Part shown: positions 5 through 53,925 of the stretch, piece by piece | Layout: each line of letters opens with the position of its first letter | How positions within the stretch are numbered: the first letter of the stretch is position 1 | IMG/VR virus record: IMGVR_UViG_3300032782_000001 | Coordinates: 116,404 to 180,403 of that record | Direction: 5' to 3' (one strand) | DNA length: 64,000 nucleotides | From: a virus | Notes under the pieces: model-generated | Seen by the model: the letters and a program-made list of their open reading frames with translations, nothing else | The model's database searches: none | Told to the model about the DNA's origin: nothing | Made by a program: the position numbers and the translations under genes

Positions 5-382
5 ATGTATGAAACTGTTGCCGTTTCGGTCATAAATCCGAGTGCTGTGTCCAAAGTCCAAATCGCTAAACCACCTCCCTCCCTAATTTGGTCCTTTCCT
101 GATCGTGACATTGAAATCCATGCCATTCAAATTGGATTTTGGTTAGATTTTGAAATCCATACAATAAGCTCAGGGGCAAATAAGTCCATGTTTTGCCGAT
201 ATGGGTCTTCACACGACGAGCCGTCTAATCGACGATTCGAATCGTTTCAAGGTTCTTGGCAAAGAATCGATGACTCTCGGGCACCGGTAGCTGTTGATCG
301 CCTAATAGCCGATGAAGAGTGGATTCCCATTCGTGATGAAATATGTAGACTTTACGAAGTGGTCCTCGTCATGAATTCATAA
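5..382 (+). CDS. hypothetical protein; C-terminus ends ...VVLVMNS (VM-tail family)
   Basis: ATG-initiated 125-aa ORF; C-terminal tail resembles the recurrent V-M-E/D/N-S terminus seen on at least 13 proteins in this window. Confidence 0.4.
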   Translation: MYETVAVSVINPSAVSKVQIAKPPPSLIWSFPDRDIEIHAIQIGFWLDFEIHTISSGANKSMFCRYGSSHDEPSNRRFESFQGSWQRIDDSRAPVAVDRLIADEEWIPIRDEICRLYEVVLVMNS

Positions 383-385
383 AAC

Positions 386-414
386 TTGTGCTTGAGACTG
401 ACTTAGTGTAGAAT
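386..414 (+). promoter_or_regulatory. putative sigma70-type promoter (TTGTGC-17nt-TAGAAT)
   Basis: -35-like TTGTGC at 386-391 and -10-like TAGAAT at 409-414 with 17-nt spacer, upstream of the 486 gene. Confidence 0.25.
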
Positions 415-438
415 TTCCTCATGCTCGGCAACCGCATT

Positions 439-475
439 CCTCACGGAAAGGAGTTCATGTCATGACCCCGTGAGG
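439..475 (+). promoter_or_regulatory. 8-bp inverted repeat (CCTCACGG/CCGTGAGG) enclosing SD + ATG-TCA-TGA mini-ORF in 5' leader of gene 486
   Basis: Perfect 8-bp arms at 439-446 and 468-475; loop contains AAAGGAG then ATGTCATGA (2-codon ORF); directly upstream of RBS GAGGGAGG and GTG start of 486. Confidence 0.25.
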
Positions 476-485
476 GAGGTGTCCC

Positions 486-899
486 GTGCCGACGCGGAAG
501 AAAGCACGCCTAACTAAGCGTCTTCAGTCTCAGTACAATCAGATTCTTCAAGGTAACATCCCGGGCCATTACGAATATGGTTATGGGTTCGGATGGCCGA
601 TTGGCGGTGCCGGTTCTGGTGCCATTGGATGGGTCGCGTATTTGTTCGCCAAGGAATGGTCAGGTCGTGAAGGCGTCGATCTGAAAAAGCTTCAGGGAAT
701 CGTTCTGCGTTCAGGTGACGCAGAGTGTGCCTGGCGATTTGCCAGAGACATTCCGGCGGCCAATAAGCGTCGATTACAAACTCTCGTCATGCAGACGGGA
801 GGTGCCAATCAGATGCGAAAGTTCGCAGCTCATGTTCCCGGAGCTGATAAGCAAACTCTTGAAAATCTCGCTATCGTATCTGAGATCATGAATATGTAG
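486..899 (+). CDS. hypothetical protein (Gly-rich segment GWPIGGAGSGAIGW)
   Basis: 137-aa ORF with GTG start preceded by GAGGGAGG SD; no recognisable domain. Confidence 0.5.
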   Translation: MPTRKKARLTKRLQSQYNQILQGNIPGHYEYGYGFGWPIGGAGSGAIGWVAYLFAKEWSGREGVDLKKLQGIVLRSGDAECAWRFARDIPAANKRRLQTLVMQTGGANQMRKFAAHVPGADKQTLENLAIVSEIMNM

Positions 900-913
900 G
901 CGTATTTTCAGAA

Positions 914-1364: not shown

Positions 1365-1793
1365 TCACATTACTGTTACATCCAGTAATATATCCAACCC
1401 TTTCGTCATAATTTCCAGTACGTCACCTAGTTCTTCCACATATAACGGCCCACAGAGAACATCTGACGGAATCAGAACCAGGAGGCTCATAGACAGATTT
1501 AAAAAGTCTGCTCTTAAAAATGCAGTATTCCATGAATCCAGAATGCTAGGATTGGACAACCGTCCTAGTGTGGAACCTAAGCCGAAATCTCTGGCTCTCT
1601 CCACCAGTTTAGACAGGAACTGGATAGTCCATCGCCAACGGAATTTCTCTCGGAGATCGCCTGGCCGGAAAAGGATCGGGTGATGGGAATCCCTCAGTTC
1701 CACATCCAAAATAATGTTTTTCTCACCCCCGCTCAGTTGGATTTTTCCAGATTGGAAACCTATGTCGGGCCAGTTCGTATCGTAAAGATTCAT
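1365..1793 (-). CDS. hypothetical protein (uncertain)
   Basis: 142-aa minus ORF in a region where plus-strand ORF 1291..1683 is S/T-rich low complexity; overlaps start of 1680..1970. Confidence 0.25.
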   Translation of the reverse strand: MNLYDTNWPDIGFQSGKIQLSGGEKNIILDVELRDSHHPILFRPGDLREKFRWRWTIQFLSKLVERARDFGLGSTLGRLSNPSILDSWNTAFLRADFLNLSMSLLVLIPSDVLCGPLYVEELGDVLEIMTKGLDILLDVTVM

Positions 1794-1970
1794 AACGAAA
1801 TCTTCCGTTTTCTTTTTTCAGCGGAAGAAATGGCTGCGGCAGTAGAAGAAATCAGCGATCTTACAGAAATCCGCATAGGGGTGTGCATTTTCTGCGGGGG
1901 GTTGGCGGCATATGAACCAGATGGAATACCGAGGTGTCGCAACCCGATCCGATGTGTCATGAATTTTTAG
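1680..1970 (+). CDS. small Cys-rich protein of the VM-tail family (ends ...RCVMNF)
   Basis: C-terminal CxFCGG...RCRNPIRC-VMNF resembles zinc-ribbon + VM tail of paralogs; true start may be internal ATG (MAAAVEE). Confidence 0.45.
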   Translation: MMGIPQFHIQNNVFLTPAQLDFSRLETYVGPVRIVKIHNEIFRFLFSAEEMAAAVEEISDLTEIRIGVCIFCGGLAAYEPDGIPRCRNPIRCVMNF

Positions 1971-2368
1971 GACATCATCACATCCAACACAATTGCGTTG
2001 CGGATTATTGTGTCGCTAATATTACGAGCTTCCTCAATTAAGTCTTGAGGACGCCATGGGAGGACCATTCTGCCAATTCTCAATCCTAGTTCTCGGATGG
2101 ACGATCGATACTGACGTAGTTTCGGAGACTCTCGGGAATCTTGAACTCGGATTCTCCTAGCGGGCCAGTCATTCCATTCAACATATGTTTTCCCACGATT
2201 TGTTGTTTGGAACACTCCGATATTCCAGGAATTACGTCTGTCTTCGACAAGAAAATCAGTCCCGACAACTTGGGATTCAACATATACCCAATATTCAGAA
2301 GTGCTTCTCTGTTCCAGTCTAACATTCAGTTTAAGCTGACCTATCGATTTGAAAGGTTCCAGCGGCAT
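1967..2368 (-). CDS. hypothetical protein
   Basis: 133-aa minus ORF, divergent from 2412 gene; no plus ORF of comparable quality. Confidence 0.4.
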   Translation of the reverse strand: MPLEPFKSIGQLKLNVRLEQRSTSEYWVYVESQVVGTDFLVEDRRNSWNIGVFQTTNRGKTYVEWNDWPARRIRVQDSRESPKLRQYRSSIRELGLRIGRMVLPWRPQDLIEEARNISDTIIRNAIVLDVMMS

Positions 2369-2981: not shown

Positions 2982-3179
2982 TTAGCTCAACATCACGACT
3001 TTTACGATGTGATACTCGCAATTCTCGATTGATACCGATCCGTCAGGGTCTTCTCCTGGGGATCTCGCAGTAACCTGTCCACAACGTCTACATTGGTACA
3101 CATTCATCTCTTTACCGCAAGCTTTGTCCATTATTTTGTTTATTTCAGGATGTTGTAATACCTCCCAAACATGAGCCAC
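2982..3179 (-). CDS. small zinc-ribbon protein of the VM-tail family (ends ...KVVMLS)
   Basis: CGKE...CRRCGQ...NCEYH then VVMLS-stop; minus-strand member of the family. Confidence 0.45.
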   Translation of the reverse strand: MAHVWEVLQHPEINKIMDKACGKEMNVYQCRRCGQVTARSPGEDPDGSVSIENCEYHIVKVVMLS

Positions 3180-3202: not shown

Positions 3203-3862
3203 ATGCATGTCATGGATCCATATGGTATTGAACCTAAAAAGAGGAACCAGGTTCGTCACACTCCGCCATCTCGATCGAATTTTTTGAATCGATTCCGAGA
3301 TAGGATCGTAAAGTGTGATGATGATTGGATTATCGTAAGGAATTGGGCCTCTGAGCTCAGCATGCCAATACTGATAGTAGCATCGTTGTTCAATTCGCTT
3401 GTAGCTGAAGGGATTTTGGAAGGACCTCTTCCCGTTCCTGTCGAAGAAGAACATCTCAAGTACGGCGGCCGAGGCATTTGTTTCTTAAATGGGAAATGGT
3501 ATTACAGAGATTTCGAATTTGAGAGATTTTACAAATGGGGATCTCGCGGTTGTCAGAAAGTCAAGAAATGTGGTAAATCCGAACTGCCAATAGGCAGGCA
3601 ACCTTCTAAAAGGACTATTTCCAAAAAGGCACAGGAAAGGCCTTTGAAACTGTGTGAATGGAACGGGAAAGGATACCGTATTAATCGAGACGCACCAACA
3701 TTCAAGGAAGCCGCGAGAACACAGGTGCAGGTTACTACGGGTTCTATTTGTAATCGATGCGGCATTCAGTTGGATTTCAATGGGAAACATTCTAGAAGAA
3801 GCAGAGGACATACTCGAATTAAATGTAACAAATTTATCGTAAAAACTGTCATGGAAAGCTGA
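3203..3862 (+). CDS. zinc-ribbon-containing protein, C-terminal ...KTVMES
   Basis: 219-aa ORF; CNRCGIQ...KCNKFIVKTVMES tail matches family consensus. Confidence 0.5.
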   Translation: MHVMDPYGIEPKKRNQVRHTPPSRSNFLNRFRDRIVKCDDDWIIVRNWASELSMPILIVASLFNSLVAEGILEGPLPVPVEEEHLKYGGRGICFLNGKWYYRDFEFERFYKWGSRGCQKVKKCGKSELPIGRQPSKRTISKKAQERPLKLCEWNGKGYRINRDAPTFKEAARTQVQVTTGSICNRCGIQLDFNGKHSRRSRGHTRIKCNKFIVKTVMES

Positions 3863-7746: not shown

Positions 7747-9039
7747 TTGGGACTCATGGGAATGTACGAAGAAGCTTCCAAGCGGAAGGCGCTCGCTGTC
7801 AGGGCTCTTCGTTCTCTTCTTGTAAGTCAGAAACCCCTTGAAATGGATGCTATTTTCATGCTTCCAGGGGAAGCTTATGAACGTCGAGATTCTCCCAATC
7901 GGGCCTGGCAGAACGAATTCATGGCTTCTTTGATCGGAAGCGGGATTGTTCAAGAGCACTCGAAAAATAAGGGACGATCCATGTTTGTCTTAAAGAACCC
8001 GGATCGTGTTATCCAGCTCTTGAAAGACGAAAACGCGGGTGGTGATGAGTTAGCAGAACTCGTCACCGAGACGTCTGAAAATGCTCAGTGGTCTAAGACC
8101 GGACAGTCTAACGTCACTCGGACAGCTAAGGGGATCCCTCTTACCAGCAAACCATTTCATAATCTTCCCAGTCTTCTCAAGACGCCAGAATCCACTAAGA
8201 CTAATGTAAACGTCACTGTATTCGGCCTCAACGATGATATGAATGTGGAAACTGAAGACGGAGGGAAATTCGAGACTGAGGAAGAGACTGAGGAGACTGA
8301 AGAATCAGATGACGAATCTGAGACTTCAGGAAATGAAGTTCCGCCAACTTATCAGTGGCCTACTGTCATTCTTGATTATGTTGAAGCCACTAATAAGCAA
8401 TATGTTTCCACTTCAGAGATCGCAGTTCACGCTCTCAAGTTTTCGCCTTCCAACGTCAACGTTTCTGTCCTGAGAGCCATTGGCGGAGTGCTTCGCAATA
8501 ATGGTTGGCGAAATGGGAAATCTAAACCTAATGATGGTTCTAGGCCTATAAGGATTTGGATCCGAAAGGGTTCGCCGGATCCTCAAAACTATGACCTTCC
8601 CGGTTCTTCCCATTCAGAGTATGAGACCGAATCTAACTCACGTGATTCCATTGTTCCGACAGCGATTCCTGGTGTTCAAACCATCACTCAGACCAGTCTT
8701 GATTCTATTCAGAATACTCTTTCTGAACTTCAAGATCTGCAGGCTAGGGTATGTGAGAATCTAATCTACGTCAGGGATAGTGTAAACACTCTTCACGATA
8801 GAATGGAAAGTCTGGAAACTAAACTGGACAGATTGGAAGCCGATAGAAGCACGGATCTAGACTCTGCTCTTGTAAATTCCATGCGTAAAGAAGTAAGGGC
8901 AGCAATGGAAGAGGCAGTAAGTCAGATTGAGACCGGGCGTTCGGCACGCGCCATGGCTGCTGCAGGGAAACTGTCCAGCGAAATCGCAAGTCTCCGCGAT
9001 CTCATTCAAAACGCGATGGACGGAGACGAAGATGAATGA
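7747..9039 (+). CDS. hypothetical protein with poly-acidic tract and C-terminal coiled coil
   Basis: 430-aa ORF; ETEEETEETEESDDESETS tract. Confidence 0.55.
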   Translation: MGLMGMYEEASKRKALAVRALRSLLVSQKPLEMDAIFMLPGEAYERRDSPNRAWQNEFMASLIGSGIVQEHSKNKGRSMFVLKNPDRVIQLLKDENAGGDELAELVTETSENAQWSKTGQSNVTRTAKGIPLTSKPFHNLPSLLKTPESTKTNVNVTVFGLNDDMNVETEDGGKFETEEETEETEESDDESETSGNEVPPTYQWPTVILDYVEATNKQYVSTSEIAVHALKFSPSNVNVSVLRAIGGVLRNNGWRNGKSKPNDGSRPIRIWIRKGSPDPQNYDLPGSSHSEYETESNSRDSIVPTAIPGVQTITQTSLDSIQNTLSELQDLQARVCENLIYVRDSVNTLHDRMESLETKLDRLEADRSTDLDSALVNSMRKEVRAAMEEAVSQIETGRSARAMAAAGKLSSEIASLRDLIQNAMDGDEDE

Positions 9040-9982
9040 TTTGACCAAAATGATTTCCTCTTACAAGGGGAACTCCAAATCAATGACGGAAAGACAGAAA
9101 GCAGAGCTGGAGAGTCAACTCTGGGCGAGTTATACCGCCTCTTCCGGTAAATCTTCAAATGGTTCCAGTCGAGAATGGTTGGTGACTGTTCTTGGTGGGA
9201 AGAGTAGGGATTATGAACTTCGTTTCACCTTGTGGAACGCTGGTGAATGGGTACAGCCACTATGGGATTTACTTGAAAACGGAATGCCGAGAACCACTGC
9301 CGTTCGACTCATGCGAGAGGCGCGCAGTAATGCATCTCTGAATCGGGTATCTCTCGCCGTATCTTTGCAGGCTGTGCTCGCCGCGTACAATGAATCAGGG
9401 TACGAAGCACGAACCCCGGAGGGGAAGACTTACAGGCGGACATCTCCTGGTCAGAAGTCTCAACAAGAAACGGAGTCGGAATCAAATCCTATCTTTGATT
9501 CCGATCAGTTCCAGATCACCAGGTCCAAAAAGTTCCGAGATAAGCTCGTGGCTCTGACGAGCGAATATGTTAGGACTAGTCTTACTGATTATCCCAACAT
9601 CGATGTCATCGAGGCTCGTAGGGCCGTAGACGATTTCACAAGCTTTGTTCGCGAAGCTTGTGAAGATTTGCGCCGGAAGATCTCAGTAATGAGGTCTGAA
9701 GGTCGCAAGGATAGTAAACGTCAAAAGGTGACTAGAGACCAGCTTCGCCATGCGTGTGAAGTCCTAGGCATTTCTGTAATTTACGGACACGTGCCAGACC
9801 TTAGAGTGGCTAAAAGGGCCATGCTTAAACGAGCTCGCGAACTCCATCCCGACAGGCACGGAGGTTCGGAAAAAACTCGTGCAGAGTACCAGGCCGTCAT
9901 TGAATCTTATGGAGTGATCGAAACTTACGAGAAAGGACTGACCGTTCATGCGAATGGAGATCGTAGCAATGAAGTCCGCTAA
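9032..9982 (+). CDS. J-domain (DnaJ-like) protein
   Basis: C-terminal AMLKRARELHPDRHGGSE...YQAVIESYGVI with HPD tripeptide; ATG at 9032 overlapping upstream stop. Confidence 0.6.
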   Translation: MNDLTKMISSYKGNSKSMTERQKAELESQLWASYTASSGKSSNGSSREWLVTVLGGKSRDYELRFTLWNAGEWVQPLWDLLENGMPRTTAVRLMREARSNASLNRVSLAVSLQAVLAAYNESGYEARTPEGKTYRRTSPGQKSQQETESESNPIFDSDQFQITRSKKFRDKLVALTSEYVRTSLTDYPNIDVIEARRAVDDFTSFVREACEDLRRKISVMRSEGRKDSKRQKVTRDQLRHACEVLGISVIYGHVPDLRVAKRAMLKRARELHPDRHGGSEKTRAEYQAVIESYGVIETYEKGLTVHANGDRSNEVR

Positions 9983-12161: not shown

Positions 12162-12494
12162 ATGAAGCCTGATCAGATCATTTCGCTCACCGAGAAATAC
12201 GAAGAAGCTTTCCGGCGCGTCGGTACCAGGCCTAAGGAGATCGACAGGAGCATTACGCCTCCTGGTATGCAGAAGGCATGCGAACACGCAATGTGGATGC
12301 TCCCTAAGATCCGGGAGATCCTCCAGGAGGGAAAGCATGCGAAAGCTGAAAGGTGGTTTTGTTTCGTACAGAGCGTTATGTGGCAGGCAGGATTCTTCAG
12401 CATCAATGATATGCGTGATCACAACCGGACCCCCGAAGAGGAAAAACCTGTTAGCCCGAATCCGGATGCCTGTTCTAATATCCTTGAAGATTAG
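12162..12494 (+). CDS. hypothetical protein
   Basis: 110-aa ORF. Confidence 0.5.
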   Translation: MKPDQIISLTEKYEEAFRRVGTRPKEIDRSITPPGMQKACEHAMWMLPKIREILQEGKHAKAERWFCFVQSVMWQAGFFSINDMRDHNRTPEEEKPVSPNPDACSNILED

Positions 12495-13021
12495 CTGTCC
12501 ATTACCTCCGTCGCAATCTTGGACATGTCAGCGTTAGCCTCAAGCAGGACCCACAAGACGCGGGCATCTGCCGCTACCATAAATTTCTCGTGTCGCCAAT
12601 CCTGGCAGTACCAGTCATAACCTTCGTAAGTTTTCTTTCGTTCTCCTTGATGGAGACGGGTCCTACAAGGACGTACTTGCAGCATTACATGTCCGTTACT
12701 AAGTTCAGGGAGAACTTCGAAATGGAGCATGGCGATAGTCGTGGAAGTCGGGTTTGAAGAATAATCTTTGTGCTCGGATGTTGACCATTTCACCCAAAAA
12801 CGGTTACCACCACTGCAATGAATATGGATATGGTAGGAACAAAATTCAACGGATGCTTTTAGCCTGTCAAATTCTTGGATCAGGTGAGAAATTACTGAGT
12901 CATGTAGCTCACTGAACATCATTCCAGATAATACGTTCAGACTTTGCTGTAAAATGAATCCGGAGGTTTCCATGTCAGTTATTGTAGAGATCAGGGCCGC
13001 CGAAGGCGGAGATGACGCCAA
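12491..13021 (-). CDS. hypothetical protein (ends ...ATEVMDS)
   Basis: 176-aa minus ORF; no competing plus ORF; C-terminal VM-tail. Confidence 0.45.
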   Translation of the reverse strand: MASSPPSAALISTITDMETSGFILQQSLNVLSGMMFSELHDSVISHLIQEFDRLKASVEFCSYHIHIHCSGGNRFWVKWSTSEHKDYSSNPTSTTIAMLHFEVLPELSNGHVMLQVRPCRTRLHQGERKKTYEGYDWYCQDWRHEKFMVAADARVLWVLLEANADMSKIATEVMDS

Positions 13022-13638
13022 ACTCCTCGTTGAGGATCAACTCCGAGTCTATGCGCGCCGCGCGGTTCGGAGGGGTCTTTGACCTTGAAGTAACCGAACG
13101 CCTTCCGGGCCTCGTCGTCTTCCGGTTAACCGGTAAAGGTGCAGACGAAGCTTGGAAGGATGAAGCCGGTGGACACCGCTGGCAAAGGATTCCCCCAACC
13201 GAAAAAAGGGGTCGAGTCCAAACGAGCACTGTGACAGTGGCAGTTTTGCCAGAGCCCACAGAAGCTCAGATCCGGATCGATCCGAGGGACATAGAAGCGT
13301 CCACTACTCGTGGATCTGGTCCTGGTGGTCAAAATCGAAATAAAGTGGAAACGTGTGTCATTTTGAAGCACATCCCTACGGGGCTAACTGTTCGTTGTGA
13401 ATCTGAGAGATCACAACATCAGAATCGAGCTATTGCCCTGGCACTCCTCCGGGCCAGATTATGGGACGCTGCACAGAAGCAGGCCATTGGAGCTCGTGAT
13501 GATAACCGGAAACGTCAAATTGGATCCGGAATGCGTGGAGACAAGAGAAGAACAATTCGATGCCAGGATGGGATAGTCAACGATCACTTGACTGGAAGAC
13601 ACTGGAACTTCAAAGAATATGAGCGCGGTGACTGGTAA
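12972..13638 (+). CDS. PrfH-like class-I peptide chain release factor (lacks domain 1; GGQ motif); expression requires programmed +1 frameshift at CTT-TGA-C (13077-13083)
   Basis: Frame 0 (12972..13082) gives MSVIVEIRAAEGGDDAKLLVEDQLRVYARRAVRRGL-stop. The +1 frame from 13081 continues DLEVTE...GGHRWQRIPPTEKRGRVQTSTVTVAVLPE...SGPGGQNRNKVETCVILKHIPTG...RSQHQNR. The two frames together align with RF1/RF2 domains 2-4. The shift site is GGAGGGG-T-CTT-TGA-C, the canonical prfB cassette. Confidence 0.8.
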
Positions 13639-15699: not shown

Positions 15700-16431
15700 T
15701 CAAATGCCGGTGAGTTCGCACCACCGGTCTATCACCATTTGAGCGTATGCAATGGATGGCATTCCGTAGGCACCCAGAGAAAAGGCATCGTTTACTTCAA
15801 CAACAAGTGTCTTTCCTTCCGACGTGACTCCGAGGTCCAGAGAATAAGCCACAGGCGCGCTTTTAAACGCCAGTACACATTTTTGCGCAATTTCAAAATC
15901 CGGATATTTCGTGAAGTCACCTCGATAATGACGACAGTTCACAATCAGTCCTCGATGAATGAACAGTCTATATTCAGCCACGAAGTCCACCACATCAGAG
16001 GCTAAGATTTCGAATTCATCCGGGAATGAAGCCGTCTTGATAAGATCCCGGATTGCGCCACTCGTTACAAACCCTGTGAACGCTTTACCACTTTTGAGTG
16101 GCTTGATGAACATGTGATGATTATTTTCGAGACGCTCCCTAACATATTTCATGTTGGTTTCCCACATATGTCGACCATAAAATTCGCGAATTTCTTCGAC
16201 AGGTCCGTGATCTAATGTAGGTTGCACAATTCCAAGTCTATCCAGAGCTCGACGCACAGGGCCGATCCATCCATGAACTAACGTCTCTTTGCGGAGTTCT
16301 AGTGAATCGATTTCCTCGGCCGTGAAAGGAATTGTTTCTATACCAAGCATATAACATCCATACCACAGGGAAAAAGCGGTCTCATTAATGAACTCACCGT
16401 TTTTCTTCTGGATGTATGCGAGATCAATCAT
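15700..16431 (-). CDS. ATP-grasp fold protein (putative)
   Basis: FIKPLKSGKAFTG, EYRLFIHRG and DLGV..GKTLVVEVND resemble ATP-grasp lysine, central and C-terminal motifs. Confidence 0.5.
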   Translation of the reverse strand: MIDLAYIQKKNGEFINETAFSLWYGCYMLGIETIPFTAEEIDSLELRKETLVHGWIGPVRRALDRLGIVQPTLDHGPVEEIREFYGRHMWETNMKYVRERLENNHHMFIKPLKSGKAFTGFVTSGAIRDLIKTASFPDEFEILASDVVDFVAEYRLFIHRGLIVNCRHYRGDFTKYPDFEIAQKCVLAFKSAPVAYSLDLGVTSEGKTLVVEVNDAFSLGAYGMPSIAYAQMVIDRWCELTGI

Positions 16432-22819: not shown

Positions 22820-22892
22820 GCTTCCGTAGCCAAGTTGGTCAGGCAGCGGCTTTCAATTCCGCCACACGTGGGTTCGAGTCCCACCGGAAGCG
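22820..22892 (+). tRNA. tRNA with anticodon TCA (opal-suppressor type)
   Basis: Acceptor GCTTCCG/CGGAAGC, anticodon stem GCGGC/TCCGC (4 bp + C-T), loop TTTCAAT, T-arm GTGGG-TTCGAGT-CCCAC. Confidence 0.55.
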
Positions 22893-35791: not shown

Positions 35792-35817
35792 GTTCTGGTG
35801 TACTTATCAGGTGAATT

Positions 35818-36165
35818 TTGACCAAAGAAGAAGACGAGAGGACGGCATTCGAAATATGGTGCTGTTTTTATTTCGCGCGGGCCGTCTTCGGAAAACTCGT
35901 ACAAGAGTATCCATCACCAGGTCTACTTGGAGGAGCCAAGGACAAACTCCGAGTCTTAGAAAACGACGCAGCATTGGCCAAGAATGCAAAGCGGGCTATT
36001 TCTATTCGACGGATCCCATTCATCTCGTTGGAAATAGGCCGGAGAGAAGCTGCGGTGTTGTCCGACAAAAGTTATCAAGAACTCCGCGAAACGGCGCTCC
36101 GGAGTCCATGCCTGGACGAAATGGCAACCTGGGAAGTAATTGTAGCTCTAGTCATGGACTCGTAA
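35818..36165 (+). CDS. hypothetical protein, C-terminal ...IVALVMDS
   Basis: Preferred over overlapping frame 35811..36341 (Arg/Ser-rich, non-protein-like). Confidence 0.45.
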   Translation: MTKEEDERTAFEIWCCFYFARAVFGKLVQEYPSPGLLGGAKDKLRVLENDAALAKNAKRAISIRRIPFISLEIGRREAAVLSDKSYQELRETALRSPCLDEMATWEVIVALVMDS

Positions 36166-36347
36166 AACTCCCTTCATACATACCTTCGGTATTGAATCCG
36201 AAAGATGTAAAAAGGGCTTTGGAAGAAGCCAATTTAGTATTGGTTCATGGACATGTAAGAAACCGTCAGTTTACTGATTCCGCATTCATTCTAGCCTTTC
36301 TCTTCCTCATTATCGCAACAATGTTAGTAACTTCGTGTTAAACAGCA

Positions 36348-41257: not shown

Positions 41258-42055
41258 ATGCAGCAAGAGGCGCCTCTCACCAAAGAGAAACTCGATGCGA
41301 TCTTAGACGAAATCGCAGAGTTCCGCGTCGACTTAGCTGAAGATCCGACACTTCCAGAACTCGGTACAAAGTACCTCCAGAGCAGCTTGGCTAAATGTCG
41401 AGCGTTCTTGAACAGGACTCATTATTATCTTCAATTAACCAAGAGATACGAAAAGGATCTCAAATCCAACCTCAAACTCTTGGAACTCAATGTAGATCTC
41501 AAATTTAATGGTCTTTTAGCTGACGATGCCACTGTTCGTCAACAACCTTCCATTGATGACAGGAAAGCTCTTGCTATTTCAATGATGAACAGTGAATATG
41601 AAGAAATTGCCAAGCTCCGCGCATCTCTAATGGATGCGGAAGAGACCGTGAAACTCGTAAAGGCTAAATACGATGATCTAAACAGGACTAATTCTGATAT
41701 CAAGCTTCAACGTCATCTTGTGAAAGATGATAAGATGGATCAAATGACGGGAGGGGAGGGATACGAAAAGCCTCAAGCCCGTCAAGATAGAGTGGTAACG
41801 GGCGGCCTAGCTCCGCCGGTGAAAGCAGAGCCAATTGACCCGAAAGACCTTCTGGACCCTAATCGGCGGCCAGAAGATATGCCAGAACCAGTTGACATGG
41901 CTCATGCACAGCAAATTGCTGATTTCTTTTCGGGTCGATCTACCGGGAACGGAATTCAGGTTCACCAAGGTCCAGAATCACCCAAGTCAACTGAAGAGGA
42001 ATCCGTCGATGAAGCGCCTCTTCAAGCTATATCCTACGATGACCTCCTCAGTTGA
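41258..42055 (+). CDS. coiled-coil protein (possible scaffold-like)
   Basis: 265 aa, long helical heptad-like region, acidic C-terminus. Confidence 0.5.
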   Translation: MQQEAPLTKEKLDAILDEIAEFRVDLAEDPTLPELGTKYLQSSLAKCRAFLNRTHYYLQLTKRYEKDLKSNLKLLELNVDLKFNGLLADDATVRQQPSIDDRKALAISMMNSEYEEIAKLRASLMDAEETVKLVKAKYDDLNRTNSDIKLQRHLVKDDKMDQMTGGEGYEKPQARQDRVVTGGLAPPVKAEPIDPKDLLDPNRRPEDMPEPVDMAHAQQIADFFSGRSTGNGIQVHQGPESPKSTEEESVDEAPLQAISYDDLLS

Positions 42056-42151
42056 GGATTGAACTTTCAATGTAGGATCCTATTGCTAGACCGGGTGAGC
42101 CCCGGTCACCTTCAAGCGTATTCGCGTTCAAAGGAAGAGGAGAGGAGAGAC

Positions 42152-43027
42152 ATGAGCATCATGGAATTCGGGTTCGACGACTCCAAGGTTGTCAAGGCCC
42201 AAGGGATGGAGCAGTTCAAGCTGAGCAAGCCTGGTGAGAAGGCTCGCATCACGATCATCAGCTTCAAGCGCTTCCACGACGTGATCCTCGCCAACAAGGC
42301 GAAGGAGAAGGGTTCGGCCCTCACGGATGATGAGAAGGCCGATATCATCAAGCGCGTCGATTTGAAGCTATCGGAGAAGCTCAAGAAGAAGCCCGAAGAG
42401 ATGACCGAGGTCGATCGTCTCGATATCTGCAATCCCAAGTTCTCTGTAGCATTTACTCACTACGGAGATGGCATCGGAACCATTCGTTGCCTCAGCAAGT
42501 ACGAAGGCTCGACTTGCGTGAAGCCCGAACTTTGCTGTGACAAGCTCGGTGAGGCCGACCAAACGGTCGCCACGATTGTCATGCAATACCCGGTCGATGA
42601 CAATCTCGTCATCGACGGTGCGCTCCTCAAGGAGCGCAAGTATACCCATTTCTGGGTTTACAAGATGTCGGCCAAGAACTTCAAGAAGGTCGAGAGCGCG
42701 TACATCGATGCTCGCAGCGATGGCCGCCAGGTCGTCGACATGAAGGTCACCCTCGACGGCGATCCCAAGTTCAAGAAGCACCAGATCGACGCTGGCACGA
42801 ACGCATACTGGGCTCGTGAAGGATTCGACCCGGAGACCCGGGCTTGGATTCTGGATCAGGGTCTCCGTGCATGGAAGCATGTCGAGAACAACCTTGGTTT
42901 CGTGATGAAGCGTGAGACCTTGGTCGAGCGTCTTGGAGGCCAGGAGCAATCGGAGAAGGCACTTTCTGGCGGAGAGGCGTCCGCAGACGCTCCGAAGCTC
43001 GTGTCCTCTTACGAATCGCTCATCTGA
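42152..43027 (+). CDS. hypothetical protein with very strong RBS (possibly abundant/structural)
   Basis: AAGGAAGAGGAGAGGAGAGAC-ATG; track ORF from 42059 includes implausible leader. Confidence 0.55.
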   Translation: MSIMEFGFDDSKVVKAQGMEQFKLSKPGEKARITIISFKRFHDVILANKAKEKGSALTDDEKADIIKRVDLKLSEKLKKKPEEMTEVDRLDICNPKFSVAFTHYGDGIGTIRCLSKYEGSTCVKPELCCDKLGEADQTVATIVMQYPVDDNLVIDGALLKERKYTHFWVYKMSAKNFKKVESAYIDARSDGRQVVDMKVTLDGDPKFKKHQIDAGTNAYWAREGFDPETRAWILDQGLRAWKHVENNLGFVMKRETLVERLGGQEQSEKALSGGEASADAPKLVSSYESLI

Positions 43028-43080: not shown

Positions 43081-43806
43081 ATGAAAACACTCGGCCTCGA
43101 CCCGAGCTTGCGAGCTTATGGCTGGGCTATATACGACAGTGAAGCCCAGCCACGTAACAGGAGAGTAGCTTCTGGTCATGAGGGGACATTGCCACTTACG
43201 ATCCCCGTCGCCAGATTCATGCACTTCCGATCGATGGTATCAGATTTACTTGAAAAGTATTCTGTGGATGCCGTTGGTTTGGAAAGTCCGGCTTATGGTG
43301 GAGGGCCTTTCGCTGAAAATCACTTCGGTTTAATGATGTTTTCACTCGAATCTATTTTTGAAAAACGGAAAGATTGTGTGCTTTTCGATCCGACTACTTT
43401 GAAATATCTTGTCGGGAAATCCAATGCCGGGAAGATGGACATCCAGAGATTTGTCCAATTGGATACAATGGACCCGGATGTCATCAACAATAATGAAGCG
43501 GATGCTTATTGTGTTGCCAGGGAAGCTGCTCGTTTCATGTTGGTGAAAGACACCAAAATCGATTTATCCCAACTTTCTGATCATGAAAGAATGGTATTCA
43601 TAGAACGCAAACGTAAGGTAAAAAACTCCACCGGAATGCTAAGACTGAAACGAACTGCTCATGCATTCCGTGAGAATAGTAGGTTTTTCAATTTCAGCAA
43701 AGTCCCGGCAGGAGATGTCAAGCTCCCGCAACGTTCAATGGTAAATAAGTCCCTATTACAGTGGCTCACGGACATGGACACTGTAAAAGAAGTGATGGAA
43801 TCATAG
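43081..43806 (+). CDS. RNase H-fold RuvC/YqgF-like putative Holliday-junction resolvase, C-terminal ...KEVMES
   Basis: MKTLGLDPSLRAYGWAIYD N-terminal strand like RuvC ILGIDPGxxxxGyav; acidic residues downstream. Confidence 0.45.
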   Translation: MKTLGLDPSLRAYGWAIYDSEAQPRNRRVASGHEGTLPLTIPVARFMHFRSMVSDLLEKYSVDAVGLESPAYGGGPFAENHFGLMMFSLESIFEKRKDCVLFDPTTLKYLVGKSNAGKMDIQRFVQLDTMDPDVINNNEADAYCVAREAARFMLVKDTKIDLSQLSDHERMVFIERKRKVKNSTGMLRLKRTAHAFRENSRFFNFSKVPAGDVKLPQRSMVNKSLLQWLTDMDTVKEVMES

Positions 43807-43823
43807 AACTGGTTGGAGGAGCG

Positions 43824-45152
43824 ATGGCGAAGGCAGAAGTTGGGAAGTGGCACCCGAAACTGGCGAGATTCCGAACGAATATCGAGAAGAGGACCAACAT
43901 TCGAGACGTATATTCGACGCCTTCCTTCGAAATCCCGTATATCAATTCGGGAAGCACTGTTTTAAACATGCTCATTGGTGGGTCGCGACTTGCGAACACT
44001 GGTAAATTCGTTTGCCCTGGTTGGCCACGGGGAAAAATCGTAGAAATTTTCGGGCGTGAAAGCTCCGGGAAATCAACCATCGCGATGACTGCGATGGCTC
44101 ATGCTATTGCATCCAATGAGGGAACCGGGACCGGTGTTTATATCGATCTCGAATGTGCAGTCCAAGACACGTACGCCGTCAAACTTGGCGTGGATTTCCG
44201 GGACCCATCTCAAGGTGGGTCTGGTCAGGCCATCCGACTCCAGCCTCAAAATGCTGAGGATACAGAAACCATTGTTGGGGCTGCGGTCCATCAGGGTGTA
44301 GACCTGATCGTCATCGATTCTGTGGCTGCACTTATTCCCAGGAGGGAACAGAAGCGCGATGCCTCGAACGAAGAAGAGAAAAAGGGAGTAGCAGAAGTCC
44401 CGAGGTTCATGAGCGCTTGGCTTCCTAAGCTGACTGCCATGATCGCCAAGACCAAGACATGCGTCATCTTTCTCAACCAAACGCGGGATAAGATCGGAGC
44501 CAAAGGCTTCTCGGAAGAAGCTCTCAAAAGCACTACGGGTGGAAATGCACTGAAATTCTACTCGTCTGTTCGCATGCTTTTGAAGCCTCGAATGTCTACG
44601 AAGGCCAAGGTATGGAACCCGATCATTAAAAAATTTGAAGATGTCCAAATTTCTGAGGACATCGAAGTAAAAATGATTAAAGATAAGCTGGATGCTAAGA
44701 AAGGCCACTCAGGTCTCATTACCATTCGGTACGGCGTCGGTATCGATGAACTCCGCACCATGCTGAATGTGGCGGAAGCATATGATATTGTCACCAAGAA
44801 GAAAAACGCAAAGAAGCAAGACGTGTTTAGCTTCAAATCTCCGAGTACCGGTCACATTGTGGAAGCAACGGGACTGGAAAAGTTTCGTCTTGCCATCAGC
44901 CGCCAAGAAGGTGGAGTTCTTCTGCAAGAGATGCTGAGTCTCGCGACAGACCGCATCATGCAAGGGTTCAAGATGTTGGACGACGAAGAATTGGCTGCGC
45001 TGGCAGATGATGCAGTCACGAAGCGTGAAGATGACGATGATGACTATGAAGCCGGTGAACCGCCGGAGATGGTCTACGAAGACGGCACCGACGAAGAAGA
45101 TTCTTCGGGAGACGAATCCGAACCATCAGCCGTCACTACCATTGACGTCTGA
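43824..45152 (+). CDS. RecA/UvsX-like recombinase
   Basis: Walker A GKIVEIFGRESSGKSTIAMTA, RecA-like core, acidic C-terminal tail; SD GGAGGAG before ATG 43824. Confidence 0.85.
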   Translation: MAKAEVGKWHPKLARFRTNIEKRTNIRDVYSTPSFEIPYINSGSTVLNMLIGGSRLANTGKFVCPGWPRGKIVEIFGRESSGKSTIAMTAMAHAIASNEGTGTGVYIDLECAVQDTYAVKLGVDFRDPSQGGSGQAIRLQPQNAEDTETIVGAAVHQGVDLIVIDSVAALIPRREQKRDASNEEEKKGVAEVPRFMSAWLPKLTAMIAKTKTCVIFLNQTRDKIGAKGFSEEALKSTTGGNALKFYSSVRMLLKPRMSTKAKVWNPIIKKFEDVQISEDIEVKMIKDKLDAKKGHSGLITIRYGVGIDELRTMLNVAEAYDIVTKKKNAKKQDVFSFKSPSTGHIVEATGLEKFRLAISRQEGGVLLQEMLSLATDRIMQGFKMLDDEELAALADDAVTKREDDDDDYEAGEPPEMVYEDGTDEEDSSGDESEPSAVTTIDV

Positions 45153-49839: not shown

Positions 49840-50829
49840 TTAAATGGGGGCGCTTTGGATGACCCAAAAGTCCGAACACAAGCTTGTATTCTGGACATAC
49901 GCGTAACTCATCCAGAAGTATCCTGAGAGACCCCAACCAGTGCCCCAAGAATTACGGACGAGGAAAGCACCCTTGGAAGTGGAACCATCGGCCGTAAAGG
50001 ACTTATTGTCATCGTAGCCAACGAGGCAAACCGCATGTCCACCCTGGAGCTGCTCACTCTTCTGAGGCACAGGTAGACAACCTTGATTCGCCATCGTAGA
50101 GCTCATCATATAATCATAAACCTGGAAGCCGAATCCGATGAGGAATCCGCTTGCAAGCGTAGATTTCATGGTTTCGATATCACCATCAGTAATAGCGTGA
50201 TAGCTCGTGACTTTGTGAGTCGCAGCAGCAGTCCAAATGGACTGCGGCGGATTGACCGTGAACTTTGAAATGTCGTATGGCCAAGCCGCTTCGTCTGCTA
50301 CTCCATATGATGCTCCACATTTGATAGCATCACGAATAGTAGCACCTGAGTCTTCACTTACCGTCCCCTCGATTTTTCGAGTTCCGTAATATTCAAAAAG
50401 CCGACTCGCTCGCTCAAGAGCTGCGGGCGTGGGGGCGGGCGTGGGGGCGGGCGCCGTACCAGGGGTCACGGTCGTCGTAAACGACATGACACCCTTAGGG
50501 TCTACAGACACCGGCGAAGTGGTAACAGTAGGAACGGTTCCCGTGGGGGAAACCACTACACCCAGACCGGAATGAAGTCCTGCAAGCCTCTTGATCTCGT
50601 TGAATTCGACGAGTCCCGAGAACATGTTAGCAGTGCAGCTTCCGAGTTCACCTTGATCGACGACAGGACTGCACATCGATTGGTTGTTGAACGAAGCCGG
50701 GATGGCAAGAAGGCTTCCGTGAAGCTTGATCTTGAAAGCTTCATCCCTCGGATCAAAGTGTTGTTTCTTCCAGCCTCCGAGGTGGATCCTTCGCGTAGAA
50801 CCGTCCGGATGATGCAGCGTCTTGAGCAT
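49840..50829 (-). CDS. papain-like cysteine peptidase (C1 family)
   Basis: QGELGSCTANMF (Q..GSCWAF-like Cys site), GGHAVCLVGYDD (His), VRNSWGTGWGLSGYFWMSY (Asn/Trp); Pro/Thr linker PAPTPAPTPA. Confidence 0.8.
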   Translation of the reverse strand: MLKTLHHPDGSTRRIHLGGWKKQHFDPRDEAFKIKLHGSLLAIPASFNNQSMCSPVVDQGELGSCTANMFSGLVEFNEIKRLAGLHSGLGVVVSPTGTVPTVTTSPVSVDPKGVMSFTTTVTPGTAPAPTPAPTPAALERASRLFEYYGTRKIEGTVSEDSGATIRDAIKCGASYGVADEAAWPYDISKFTVNPPQSIWTAAATHKVTSYHAITDGDIETMKSTLASGFLIGFGFQVYDYMMSSTMANQGCLPVPQKSEQLQGGHAVCLVGYDDNKSFTADGSTSKGAFLVRNSWGTGWGLSGYFWMSYAYVQNTSLCSDFWVIQSAPI

Positions 50830-51189: not shown

Positions 51190-51198
51190 ATCGTCCTT

Positions 51199-51555
51199 TC
51201 AGACGTTCAATTTTCCGATGTTCTTATAGCCAGCGGCCAGATCGCTTTTGAGTTGAAGCAAATGTGAAGCTTCTTGCTCCAACTCAGACCGACTCGGGTC
51301 CTGCGGATTCAGCGTTTTGGCGGCTTTCATGATTTTGTCGAAAAGAGCTTGTAGCCCACCGACAGCCGCTTCGTATTCCTGTTTAGTAAATTTGTCGACA
51401 TGGGCAGCTTGACGAGGTGCCACAATCGCGTCCCTGATGCGTCGCAGTTCAGAAGCCACCTTGCGCTTATCAGGACGCATAGTCCCCATATATTCGCACA
51501 GGTCTCGAAGAGCTTTGGCAGCTTCTTGGGGCGTCACGCCGGTACGAACCATCAA
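51199..51555 (-). CDS. hypothetical helical protein
   Basis: 118-aa minus ORF. Confidence 0.5.
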   Translation of the reverse strand: MMVRTGVTPQEAAKALRDLCEYMGTMRPDKRKVASELRRIRDAIVAPRQAAHVDKFTKQEYEAAVGGLQALFDKIMKAAKTLNPQDPSRSELEQEASHLLQLKSDLAAGYKNIGKLNV

Positions 51556-51579
51556 ACTCCTATGAATGGGGAATAAAGG

Positions 51580-52230
51580 ATGCGAGTCTTAGTTAGCGGA
51601 TTCGAACCCATTTGGGGTATTAAGAGGACTCCCAGTGGAGACCTTGCAAAATTATGGCAATCTGGAGAAATGCCGGTACCTGTAGGTGTTGAAGTGAAGG
51701 CGCTTCTGCTCCCTCAGGTGTTCGGAATGTGTACTAATGCCGTCTGCGATGCTATTTCGGAATTCCAACCGGATGCCGTAGTGATGTTCGGAGCTACGAC
51801 AAAAAATGATCCGGTCAGACTTGAGAGATTCGCAATTAACTGCGAACGATCCCCTATGGGGGATAATTCAAAAATTCCCGTCCGAGATAGGCCGGTCGTA
51901 GCCGGGGGGCCATCAGCCTACGAATCGACTTTGCCTGTGTATCATCTCGTAGATAGGCTTGAAGCCCAAGGAATCGCGGCAAAGCCTAGTTATTTCGCCG
52001 GAACGCACGTATGCAATTCCATACTGTATGGAGTTTCACACTGGCTGGCTTCCCGTCCCATCTCGAAGAAGCCAATTATTGGGTTTGTCCATGTAGCATT
52101 CCCGAACGAATTCGGTGTAGTTGAAGATGATCTTTGGGACACTGAAACTTGGCCAAAGCTCATGAGAGCTTCCGTTGTTTTGGTGGAAGAGATTGCAGCA
52201 TGGCTGTCTTCCAGGCCTGGTGCTACATGA
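51580..52230 (+). CDS. pcp: pyroglutamyl-peptidase I (C15)
   Basis: MRVLVSGFEPIWG start, GPSAYESTLPV, AGTHVCNSILYG catalytic Cys context match Pcp. Confidence 0.8.
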   Translation: MRVLVSGFEPIWGIKRTPSGDLAKLWQSGEMPVPVGVEVKALLLPQVFGMCTNAVCDAISEFQPDAVVMFGATTKNDPVRLERFAINCERSPMGDNSKIPVRDRPVVAGGPSAYESTLPVYHLVDRLEAQGIAAKPSYFAGTHVCNSILYGVSHWLASRPISKKPIIGFVHVAFPNEFGVVEDDLWDTETWPKLMRASVVLVEEIAAWLSSRPGAT

Positions 52231-52418
52231 CTGACACTCGGAAGTTTTGGTCCATCGAGTATATTGACGAAGATGGCGATCTCATTACCACAAACATACT
52301 TGCCACAACGGAAGAGATGAAAAAATTGATGGATGAGTTCGCACGGCGAGGGATGAAGGCAGAGACACACGACCTTTCGCCGCCGGCTGTAAACTCTTCA
52401 AATGCATTGCTCTCCTGA
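52227..52418 (+). CDS. hypothetical small protein
   Basis: ATGA overlap with pcp stop; 63 aa. Confidence 0.4.
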   Translation: MTDTRKFWSIEYIDEDGDLITTNILATTEEMKKLMDEFARRGMKAETHDLSPPAVNSSNALLS

Positions 52419-53058
52419 ATGGAACGACCTTGTCCAGTCTTCATCCGGTGATGTGAGGCGGCTCGCCTCAGTTTGGCGTTTCAGTTCAATCCCCATTGCG
52501 GTAGACGAGAACACCGCAGAGCACTCGTATTGGGTGGCTCTCTACGCCGCCATGATTCACAGGACTGCGGCTCCTGATGGACTTTTCCAGGGGATTCTCG
52601 GTCCCATTCTCTTGAAAGCTCTGGTGCACGATCTTGCAGAATGCGTAACAGGGGACGTGGTTCGAGTATTCAAATATTCAACCCCCGAGCTCAAGCAAGA
52701 AGTGGACAGGGCAGAAAATATTCTGATGAAAAAACTGCCAAACCTCGTTCAAGACCTCGTGGGAGAAGCGGAACAGCCTCAAGGAAATGACAAGGCATAT
52801 ATTTCTGCGGTGGTAAAGTGCGCTGATTTTTTGAGTCTGTTCCAGTTTATGAGGCGTGAAGCCATGCGAGGTAATTCCGAAATTGCCCCATTTTATGGTC
52901 GAATGATCACGGACTTGGAGACTATGGCTTCCGACGAGCGGGAATTAGTAGTAGGGAAAGATTTGAAGTTCCGACCTTCAGAGCTTTACACGGCTATGTT
53001 CACGGAAGCTCGCGCTATTTACAGATTCAAATGGAATATCGGGTCTAATAATGGCTGA
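52402..53058 (+). CDS. HD-domain phosphohydrolase (YfbR-like 5'-deoxynucleotidase)
   Basis: H...HSYWVA...ALVHDLAECVTGDV HD motif arrangement. Confidence 0.65.
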   Translation: MHCSPEWNDLVQSSSGDVRRLASVWRFSSIPIAVDENTAEHSYWVALYAAMIHRTAAPDGLFQGILGPILLKALVHDLAECVTGDVVRVFKYSTPELKQEVDRAENILMKKLPNLVQDLVGEAEQPQGNDKAYISAVVKCADFLSLFQFMRREAMRGNSEIAPFYGRMITDLETMASDERELVVGKDLKFRPSELYTAMFTEARAIYRFKWNIGSNNG

Positions 53059-53554
53059 AACCAAAAGTGAAATTCGGGCCAGAATCGATGAACTCGATAA
53101 AGTCCTCGACAGTCTCGAAGCTGGTTTTGTAGAAGATATATCGCCTTACAAATTCATCGAGGCGCGGAAGAACGCACTGGAAGAGGAACTAGCTCGCGCT
53201 GAGGAAGATCTTTTCGCTTCGGTCCTTCAATCTCATAAAACCATCTGTGCAGTGAAACAGATGGAAGAAGATGCAGCCTATGGCCAAGACCCAGCCCTGT
53301 ATTACACATTAGCTATTTGTGGAGAATCTGGGGAGATGGCGAATAAAATCGTCAAGGCTCTCCGGAATGGAAATGACCCCAACGCGTGCAAAAACGCTGT
53401 CATTTCGGAACTCCCGGATGTTATCATTTATAGCGCCGTCCTAGCATACGTGCTTCAGATCGATTTGACGAGGTTGGTCAACGACAAAGTAAAAATTGTC
53501 ATTGAACGTGCCGAATCTGGTTATTATGGCGGGCCGCTCAGCAAGATCACATAA
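53051..53554 (+). CDS. MazG-like nucleoside triphosphate pyrophosphohydrolase
   Basis: LAICGESGEMANKI E-x-x-GE-x-x-E core. Confidence 0.6.
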   Translation: MAETKSEIRARIDELDKVLDSLEAGFVEDISPYKFIEARKNALEEELARAEEDLFASVLQSHKTICAVKQMEEDAAYGQDPALYYTLAICGESGEMANKIVKALRNGNDPNACKNAVISELPDVIIYSAVLAYVLQIDLTRLVNDKVKIVIERAESGYYGGPLSKIT

Positions 53555-53925
53555 TGAAGTCCAGAGAGTTATGTCGATGGGCGTGTAGTTGGCTCCGCGG
53601 GAAAGGTCATGAATTCCGACCAGGGAATCTTGGAGTTCCTTGTGTAGTATGTATTAAATGTAATCTGCTTCTTACTTCCAGAGGTCGAATACAGACCCCT
53701 TCACACATGTGGTTGGCTGAATCAGCACAGAAACCAAGAATCGGACGTGTAACTTATTGCGGGAGACGAAGTGGCAAGGCAATCACGCCAAAAATGACAA
53801 TCGGATCCATACGCATAACCCACCATCGAAGACAAAACGATAGTTCTTCAAGTTTGCGAAAGATGGCAATGAAAATTTCGCATTCCTGCAAAGAACTTCG
53901 TATACTAGAAGTGATGGAATCATGA
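53554..53925 (+). CDS. hypothetical basic protein, C-terminal ...RILEVMES
   Basis: 123 aa; ATGA overlap with next gene. Confidence 0.5.
   Translation: MKSRELCRWACSWLRGKGHEFRPGNLGVPCVVCIKCNLLLTSRGRIQTPSHMWLAESAQKPRIGRVTYCGRRSGKAITPKMTIGSIRITHHRRQNDSSSSLRKMAMKISHSCKELRILEVMES

Follow-up and report, generated by a model that had tools for sequence, protein, structure and literature searches.

A recurrent C-terminal V-M-E-S tail on otherwise unrelated proteins of a huge phage, tentatively read as a capsid-directed sorting tag

A 64-kb window (48% GC) of the viral record IMGVR_UViG_3300032782_000001 (positions 116,404 to 180,403; "the window" means this whole stretch) is a piece of a ~436-kb "huge" phage, the window's resolvase sequence recurring unchanged on a metagenomic contig of 436,316 bp. 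It was found that 12–14 of the ~104 predicted window proteins (~1/8, ~13%) end in Φ-V-x-x-[VI]-M-[EDN]-S-COOH, which is referred to here as the tail, and its bearers as carriers. The peptide is confined to the C-terminus, and strong selection acts on it at the level of the protein. Since unrelated proteins keep the same end while the remainder diverges, we infer that one conserved receptor reads the terminal helix and the free C-terminus. By analogy with the capsid-targeting sequence of T4, the tail could be a capsid-directed sorting tag, a reading that is favoured here while being held tentatively and as something short of probable.

The gene set of 104 proteins was obtained with a simple caller based on codon usage. 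The pattern VM[EDN][SQ] was present at 10 of the 104 C-termini, against 0.0035 expected (Poisson p ~7e-32), and had no internal occurrence in 19.8k residues; VMES was the sole C-terminal 4-mer that recurred in the window. A position-specific scoring matrix (PSSM) trained solely on 79 carriers from other genomes was tested on the window C-termini against 18,933 internal 8-mers. Twelve window C-termini outscored every internal 8-mer, with the C-terminus of 2982–3179 (VMLS) just below them and that of 1680–1970 marginal. All 12 open reading frames (ORFs) that a first-pass annotation of the window had listed as carriers exist with the tails given there, but the one at 1680–1970, ending CVMNF, is doubtful, and two carriers, at 486–899 and 1967–2368, had been missed. 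Independent pipelines agree on the carrier ORFs P0121, P0123, P0127, P0129 and P0142. Two further carriers lie immediately left of the window, which makes four consecutive carriers at its left edge.

Carriers in the window and the form of the tail

The carriers are as follows, with lengths in amino acids (aa) and PSSM scores.

5–382, plus strand: 132-aa carrier with tail ..YEVVLVMNS and a Cys at −12, score 14.5, above all internal 8-mers; the gene is cut by the window edge and starts 16 nt upstream of the window.
486–899, plus strand: 137-aa carrier with the variant tail ..LAIVSEIMNM and no Cys near it, score 14.4; best codon score among the carriers.
1680–1970, plus strand: doubtful carrier, ..CRNPIRCVMNF with a CxxC..C pattern, score −3.1 (p 0.005); overlaps the minus-strand ORF 1365–1793, called instead by another pipeline, the codon scores of both being similar.
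1967–2368, minus strand: 133-aa carrier with the tail only, ..NAIVLDVMMS, score 12.5.
2982–3179, minus strand: 65-aa putative zinc-ribbon family member, HVWE..CRRC..NCEYHIVKVVMLS, with a VMLS end, score 6.1 (13th-ranked C-terminus).
3203–3862, plus strand: 219-aa carrier (P0129) whose C-terminal ~45 aa are a putative zinc-ribbon and tail module, ..CNRC..KCNKFIVKTVMES, score 21.9.
12491–13021, minus strand: tail-only orphan, ..SKIATEVMDS, score 14.1; the Joint Genome Institute call is 142 aa, implying a calculated start near 12919, and a homologue search in 5.8 billion proteins returned nothing beyond the protein itself.
24349–24633, plus strand: putative capsid-arm chimera with a Cys knuckle and then ..CNLCIVVDVMES, score 19.9.
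24630–24881, plus strand: 83-aa putative zinc-ribbon family member, NHDWE..CRKC..DCDIVLVRSVMES, score 21.5.
25418–25606, plus strand: 62-aa putative zinc-ribbon family member, MHQWE..CGRC..DCNERLVKWVMEQ, beginning just past the tmRNA gene, score 7.7; this start, chosen in the first-pass annotation, is correct, as the longer ORF 25358–25606 overlaps the tmRNA gene at its 5′ end.
26874–27146, plus strand: 90-aa putative zinc-ribbon and tail protein (P0121), ..CPQC..ECNRRIVLQVMES, score 22.1.
35818–36165, plus strand: 115-aa carrier with the tail only, ..WEVIVALVMDS, score 18.3; preferred over the overlapping ORF 35811–36341 on codon score and GC phase; in the closest relative the carrier is not conserved at this place.
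43081–43806, plus strand: putative RuvC-like resolvase with a ~10-aa tail appended, ..WLTDMDTVKEVMES, score 23.5.
53554–53925, plus strand: 123-aa carrier, ..SCKELRILEVMES, with a Cys at −12, score 17.8; it lies within a segment missing from the L003 relative and has a poor codon score, yet its start and stop both overlap neighbouring ORFs.

Conservation at the level of the protein, already proposed on first reading of the sequence, was confirmed on 45 carriers. All six Ser codons, all four Val codons and both Glu codons were used among them, and the stop codons were TGA (23), TAA (18) and TAG (4). This full use of synonymous codons and stops places the selection on the protein. No stop-codon bias was present in the carriers, whose usage equals that of non-carriers, the DNA downstream of carrier stops was unrelated, and the motif was kept across genomes of 38–65% GC. 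Scans of two carrier clusters for sigma-70 promoters and terminators gave counts at or below the shuffled expectation. Some carrier stops overlap the next start (ATGA), for example 24633/24630, as might be expected of a nucleic-acid signal such as a ribosome-binding site, a terminator or a recombination linker. However, this explanation is refuted by the synonymous codons, the three stops, the unrelated flanks and the persistence over that GC range, and frameshifted annotation of one duplicated gene is ruled out by the unrelated ORF bodies and the recovery of the same ORFs in independent pipelines, so that the probability of either is close to nil.

When the carriers were right-aligned, the consensus [I/T/L](−8)-V(−7)-x-x-[V/I](−4)-M(−3)-[E/D/N](−2)-S(−1) was obtained. 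Position −7 is V or I in 41 of 43 carriers (2.9 bits), though it was unused for carrier selection; position −8 is I in 19 of the 43, and polar residues predominate at −6 and −5. Ser ends the protein in 37 of 43, with the qualification that outside the window −4 to −1 belonged to the search pattern and the frequencies there are partly circular. Conservation falls off with distance from the stop codon. The hydrophobic spacing (i, i+1, i+4, i+5) fits one helix face. AlphaFold2 placed a tail helix at residues 232–240 of the resolvase (overall predicted local distance difference test score, pLDDT, 91; last block ~70) and at residues 72–82 of the zinc-ribbon carrier 24630–24881 (pLDDT ~80), and the tail is accordingly predicted to form the final two turns of an amphipathic helix that ends the protein.

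Carrier classes, portability and distribution

Two classes of carriers were distinguished. Class A has the form H-x-W-[EK] .. [RK]-C-x-[RK]-C-G .. D-C-[DN]-x-x-Φ-V-[KR]-x-V-M-E-S over 55–95 aa, with the terminal helix beginning at the last Cys. In the window the full H-x-W signature is present in the carriers starting at 2982, 24630 and 25418, and the CxxC..C module in those at 3203, 24349 and 26874 and in the doubtful one at 1680. Searches with this family yielded no significant Pfam, PDB or fold match, only generic zinc ribbons at E ≥ 0.02. A full HMMER scan with the class A profile gave 19 representatives (E up to 0.001) among 1.84 billion proteins, and a word-indexed search with the module profile retrieved almost only its own queries. 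Because the putative zinc-ribbon carriers form one genuine family with the tail as its terminal helix, part of the recurrence is paralogy. It had been stated in the first-pass annotation that most carriers are zinc ribbons; this is true of 7 of 14 in the window but of 39% overall. Class B, which has the tail only, comprises 5–382, 486–899, 1967–2368, 12491–13021, 35818–36165, 53554–53925 and the resolvase. After removal of the last 9 residues, no mutual similarity was detected among its members.

The tail had also been suggested to be portable, and this was upheld by several carriers in which it, or a segment bearing it, follows a recognisable domain. The product of 43081–43806 matched PHROG 159 (E 5e-15), and invariant acidic residues are present in its 113-sequence alignment; by this profile and the conserved catalytic core it is classed as a putative RuvC-like Holliday-junction resolvase. 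Its orthologues in nine relatives have a common core up to ..LLxWLE, after which the tail continues only in the window (TVKEVMES) and in one relative (IVESIMQK), and 7 of 120 RuvC-like homologues in the 5.8-billion-protein collection have a tail. In another genome a phrog_7499 domain (residues 1–74) precedes a Cys-rich stretch of 50 aa that ends in IIVKTVMES, and a Lar-like restriction-alleviation domain (residues 2–51) is followed by ..IVNFIMEM. When the last 8 residues were removed, the 95 non-redundant carriers collected from all genomes fell into 86 BLAST clusters, singleton or small. Two unrelated larger proteins had been named as carriers at first: the tail of the resolvase is indeed appended, but the 219-aa protein bears a zinc-ribbon module C-terminally and not a bare tail. 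Pfam and PHROG searches of the carriers returned almost nothing beyond the RuvC-like, weak major-head, Lar-like and phrog_7499 matches. The carriers have a median length of 100 aa and are soluble, with no charge or hydrophobicity bias; 1 of the 95 looks transmembrane.

For the distribution of the tail, IMG/VR was scanned with two degenerate DNA patterns, I-V-x-x-V-M-E-S-stop and V-x-x-V-M-E-S-TGA. Most matches were single and chance-like, and repeated matches were obtained on 3300012980_000004 (393 kb), 3300028920_000001 (427 kb), 3300036766_000359 (193 kb) and 3300022562_002172 (63 kb). Three of these four contigs are relatives of the window as defined by RuvC. Relatives are located on IMG/VR contigs of 63–427 kb. 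Related genomes were sampled as loci of at most ~20 kb, mostly picked for containing a tail. The loci around single matches on those contigs and on about seven more contained 2–8 extra tailed ORFs each, with densities such as 8 tailed ORFs in 10.5 kb and ~18 along ~25 kb of the 393-kb contig. The occurrence of the motif in related phages, proposed earlier as a check, was established in this way, the 95 non-redundant carriers being spread over at least 12 contigs. Carriers are located among small orphan genes in variable islands and, since they are not syntenic between relatives, behave as accessory genes. The majority of huge-phage genes are orphans without an assigned function; the shared tail would group ~1/8 of them into one pathway and provide a handle on the "dark matter" of huge phages. 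No DNA-level similarity to the window was found in the GenBank phage set, no tails were found in the 80 kb sampled of LR745208 (485 kb), and no published description of the motif was found in the literature searched.

As regards hosts, a 65%-GC contig (L040) binned with a Phycisphaerales genome contains two tailed ORFs, and the L138 contig is in a metagenome-assembled genome labelled Methylobacter sp. Relatives are binned with different bacterial phyla, which is a weak hint that the phage clade may span distant hosts while keeping the same tail.

Capsid-protein segments and the reading of the tail

In the clustering of ORFs from tail-rich loci, some carriers grouped with a ~300-aa protein. This protein is the major capsid protein, as it matched PDB 6WKK "Gp27 major capsid protein" (E 2.8e-60) and also phage G gp27 and the Tunturi_5 major head protein. 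The homology of the window carrier 24349–24633 to the phage-G-type major capsid protein links its residues ~3–60 with the N-terminal arm of the latter (positions 11–66 of the capsid hidden Markov model (HMM), E 5e-8; blastp to the L053 capsid protein, E 3e-7; PHROG major head, E 0.019). Further carriers matched the capsid HMM at positions 9–47 (L051:1112–1414, E 9e-12), 8–59 (L073:7029–7298), 86–115 (L073:6626–6832), 270–294 (L051:918–1112) and 37–67 (L040:3697–3996). Among 259 large non-carrier ORFs, the capsid protein alone has several carriers as fragments, and tblastn of one capsid-fragment carrier against GenBank phages matched only capsid-protein N-termini. On three related 60–65%-GC contigs, carriers lie 1–6 kb downstream of the capsid gene. 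Judged by homology, a capsid N-terminal arm followed by a Cys knuckle and a VMES tail is a conserved protein type of at least four genomes, including the window. No additional capsid-arm mimic was found in phage G, Tunturi_5 or LR745208. The capsid-fragment carriers may point to an unexplored regulation of giant-capsid assembly. A 63-aa ORF on the minus strand at L047:6241–6429 is also homologous to capsid positions 32–70 and ends ..KKIITR, without a tail.

Capsid-directed sorting is favoured because of the capsid-fragment carriers, the T4 precedent and, as a lead only, the likeness of V-M-E|S to a protease site. The tail would bring accessory proteins to the assembling capsid, where it might dock on the capsid protein, the scaffold or the head protease, and the tagged proteins would be incorporated and then delivered with the DNA, like the internal proteins of T4. 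Strict C-terminality, enrichment, codon scatter, conservation over 38–65% GC, portability and a predicted helix in two unrelated contexts were also counted for this reading, as were the location of carriers in variable orphan-gene islands and the resemblance of one of them to the anti-restriction protein Lar. It has been reported that the internal proteins of T-even phages are diverse small accessory or anti-defence proteins which share only a terminal capsid-targeting sequence (PMC3012670). The tail is likewise a short terminal peptide common to unrelated small proteins in variable loci (86 clusters for 95 carriers), with a hydrophobic-x-Glu element like a head-protease site. The logo of the Glu-specific giant-phage head protease has A-X-E with V at P4 and S at P1′ (PMC10052503), and V-M-E|S could resemble such sites. 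In contrast, the T4 sequence is N-terminal, is cut off by the head protease after [LI]-x-E and occurs on a handful of proteins, whereas the VMES tail is C-terminal, is unrelated in sequence and occurs on ~13% of genes. Short peptides that dock unrelated cargo inside an HK97-fold shell are known from encapsulins (cargo-loading peptides) and from the HK97 head protease (a C-terminal targeting tail); the present peptide is also C-terminal, and the capsid protein of the clade has the phage-G HK97-type fold. However, encapsulin peptides have an LTVGSLK-like consensus and need not be at the extreme end, whereas the consensus here is [ITL]-V-x-x-[VI]-M-E-S.

Several points weigh against capsid-directed sorting. 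No receptor was identified, capsid segments are present in only ~6 of the 95 carriers, and the proteins with such segments could regulate assembly instead of being cargo. For packaged cargo, ~13% of genes is a high share, and a resolvase would be strange to package. The T4 sequence occupies the other terminus, and cleavage of the tail behind Glu would free only Ser. In the zinc-ribbon carriers the helix begins at the zinc ligand and may be part of the fold core. Furthermore, the capsid protein of LR745208 is 78% identical to that of a tail-bearing contig, yet LR745208 is tail-free in the stretch sampled, which makes it unlikely that the system is dictated by the capsid protein itself.

The tail appears to work as a known kind of element, a terminal recognition tag, yet outside every described family. 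It could be a C-terminal "postcode" (..V-x-x-V-M-E-S-COOH) that enrols more than 10% of the proteome, most plausibly for giant-capsid loading and co-injection, and this full proposal is regarded as lying on the doubtful side of plausible. Its logic would be comparable to KDEL or PTS1. KDEL, the PTS1 signal -SKL and viral PDZ-binding tails are a few invariant last residues on unrelated proteins that are read by one receptor; those systems are eukaryotic and of different chemistry, and we know of no bacterial or phage receptor of the KDEL/PTS1 kind. PDZ ligands have a hydrophobic last residue, whereas Ser prevails here. The enrolees of such a postcode would be fast-evolving effector-like proteins, the resolvase and capsid-protein mimics, and, if it is real, it would represent an unrecognised phage system of protein sorting and effector delivery. 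A sorting or loading tag would also define the set of proteins co-delivered with the DNA, likely anti-defence or takeover effectors, and could, as a short transferable tag, be used to load foreign proteins into very large capsids.

The tail could instead be a degron through which an AAA+ protease or adaptor of the host or the phage removes accessory proteins, probably early ones, and the potentially toxic resolvase in a timed manner; we consider this somewhat unlikely. C-terminal degrons occur on DNA-repair proteins (RecN, and MuA with ClpXP), and the tail resembles the ssrA/ClpX type in being strictly C-terminal and transferable, with a free carboxylate, which is part of ssrA-type recognition. 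Many small orphan proteins in variable islands bear it, the phage has its own tmRNA, so that tag-directed turnover is already in use, and the capsid-fragment carriers could be assembly inhibitors cleared on time. The relative phage G also encodes ClpP and ClpX (bioRxiv 10.1101/2024.12.16.628780). However, the polar E-S or D-S end is unlike the non-polar ends (..LAA) of known tags and the ..LRIAA end of the phage's own tmRNA tag, and those tags are disordered, whereas the tail is predicted to be helical and is joined directly to a zinc ligand. The motif is also unchanged across probable hosts of very different GC. A search for a cognate PDZ or protease partner, suggested in the first-pass annotation, came out negative: Pfam and PHROG scanning, which covered about half of the window proteins, revealed no AAA+ protease or adaptor and no PDZ or TPR partner among them, apart from one weak sub-threshold TPR_10 match on a J-domain protein. 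If the tail is a degron, it would define a new proteolytic timing circuit. Docking on a non-capsid hub (a replisome or recombination factor, RNA polymerase, a chaperone or a host machine), to which each carrier brings a different activity, is judged unlikely. An amphipathic helix with a C-terminus resembles tail docking of the clamp, SSB or TPR type, the resolvase bears the tail, and invariance over 38–65% GC fits a highly conserved receptor. The acidic C-terminal tails of SSB and T7 gp2.5 are a hub motif on DNA-metabolism proteins, and the same genomes have a second, hub-like C-terminal motif, ..SYDDLL, on two core proteins by RuvC and RecA. The VMES tail, by comparison, is neither acidic nor aromatic and occurs mostly on orphans rather than replication proteins; RecA, the SbcC-like protein, the sigma factors and the methylase are without it. 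Clamp-binding motifs are QL[SD]LF-like and the SSB tail is acidic with an aromatic end, but Gln and aromatic residues are not common anywhere in the tail, and PDZ ligands are no better match. Moreover, ~80 unrelated orphans on one replication or transcription hub are hard to explain.

It was also considered whether no separate signal exists, the carriers being one ancient fast-evolving family with a helix constrained for folding and with add-ons gained via 3′-end recombination. Half of the window carriers are in the zinc-ribbon family detectable by HMM, with the helix starting from the last Cys; the Cys at −12 persists in some tail-only carriers, and distant members vary at −3 (VLES, VQES, VIES). 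A helix held by folding, however, would also accept L, I or F where V and M stand, and would leave E-S free to vary at the end of proteins whose upstream sequences are unrelated. In other phages the RuvC-like, Lar-like and phrog_7499 proteins fold with no tail, and many carriers are without any Cys. A single paralogue family was rejected as the whole explanation, and the account in general is thought decidedly improbable. Still less probable is a co-translational element for termination or rescue, or an acceptor for a C-terminal modifier such as the R2K ATP-grasp ligase, the peptidase or the phosphatase encoded nearby. The position is fixed relative to the stop, from which conservation decays; the window encodes an RF-1/PCRF-domain protein, PTH2, a tmRNA and two UGA-reading tRNAs; an RF-1-domain gene adjoins a carrier in the window and in L040; an R2K ATP-grasp gene is present at 15700–16431; and a calcineurin-like phosphatase, recognised by eye only, is near carriers in three genomes. 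Nevertheless, stop-codon use is the same as in non-carriers, Ser comes from two codon boxes and hence from two different tRNAs, and the i, i+1, i+4, i+5 hydrophobic pattern indicates a folded helix. In addition, the two R2K and two papain-like relatives recovered in a close-relative search are on contigs without tails in the sampled flanks, and with ~13% carriers the adjacency of an RF-like gene is weak evidence.

Other genes of the window

The second C-terminal motif, ..S-Y-D-D-L-L-[KS] (variants SYESLI and SYxFIDDL), is present on the products of 41258–42055 and 42059–43027 (plus strand), which are adjacent and just upstream of the RuvC and RecA genes. It is kept in every relative sampled, with orthologues in L001–L009 and L038, and also in L021:18–404 and 397–1032. 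The motif looks like an SSB-type acidic hub tail, and the two proteins had no Pfam, PHROG or PDB match.

Genes related to translation were also observed. The tmRNA at 25030–25404 (plus strand), with the tag ANDNGALRIAA, is amid the second carrier cluster, and the 5′ extension of ORF 25358–25606 is the translation of the tmRNA 3′ end. Two tRNAs of 74–77 nt with anticodon TCA, at 22719–22795 and 22820–22893 (plus strand), are of the opal-suppressor type and, by length, not tRNA-Sec. A 208-aa RF-1/PCRF-domain protein is encoded at 13012–13638 (plus strand) and a PTH2 peptidyl-tRNA hydrolase at 20185–20523 (plus strand). Together these hint that elsewhere in the genome stop codons are recoded or translation is manipulated, although within the window TGA works as a stop. 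An RF-1-domain gene adjoins a tailed gene in two unrelated genomes (L040:579–983/980–1147; window 13012–13638/12491–13021), which may be coincidence.

The R2K-clade ATP-grasp enzyme, of RimK-like type, is encoded on the minus strand (PF18299, E 2e-38). RimK-like enzymes add residues to protein C-termini. Two R2K relatives from a close-relative search are on contigs without tails in the 20 kb sampled. The calcineurin-like (ApaH-type) phosphoesterase genes near carriers are at window 54769–55800 (plus strand), L108:3348–4145 and L047:10077–10856. A papain-family C1 peptidase (49840–50829, minus strand) and a pyroglutamyl peptidase of family C15 (51580–52230, plus strand) are 0.75 kb apart. Genes at 16459–17409, 17361–18410 and 21203–21781 (plus strand) resemble by eye pyrimidine-biosynthesis genes, namely those for dihydroorotate dehydrogenase, dihydroorotase and orotate phosphoribosyltransferase. 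J-domain-like proteins are encoded at 56572–56895 (minus strand) and 8927–9982 (plus strand), both below the Pfam cut-off. The window also encodes a RecA/UvsX-like protein (43761–45152), an SbcC-like ATPase and, besides the RuvC-like resolvase, the tmRNA and the tRNAs, many auxiliary genes. Two sigma-factor-like genes are present, one of full sigma-70 type at 36348–37550 (plus strand) and one with region 2 only at 59331–59996 (minus strand).

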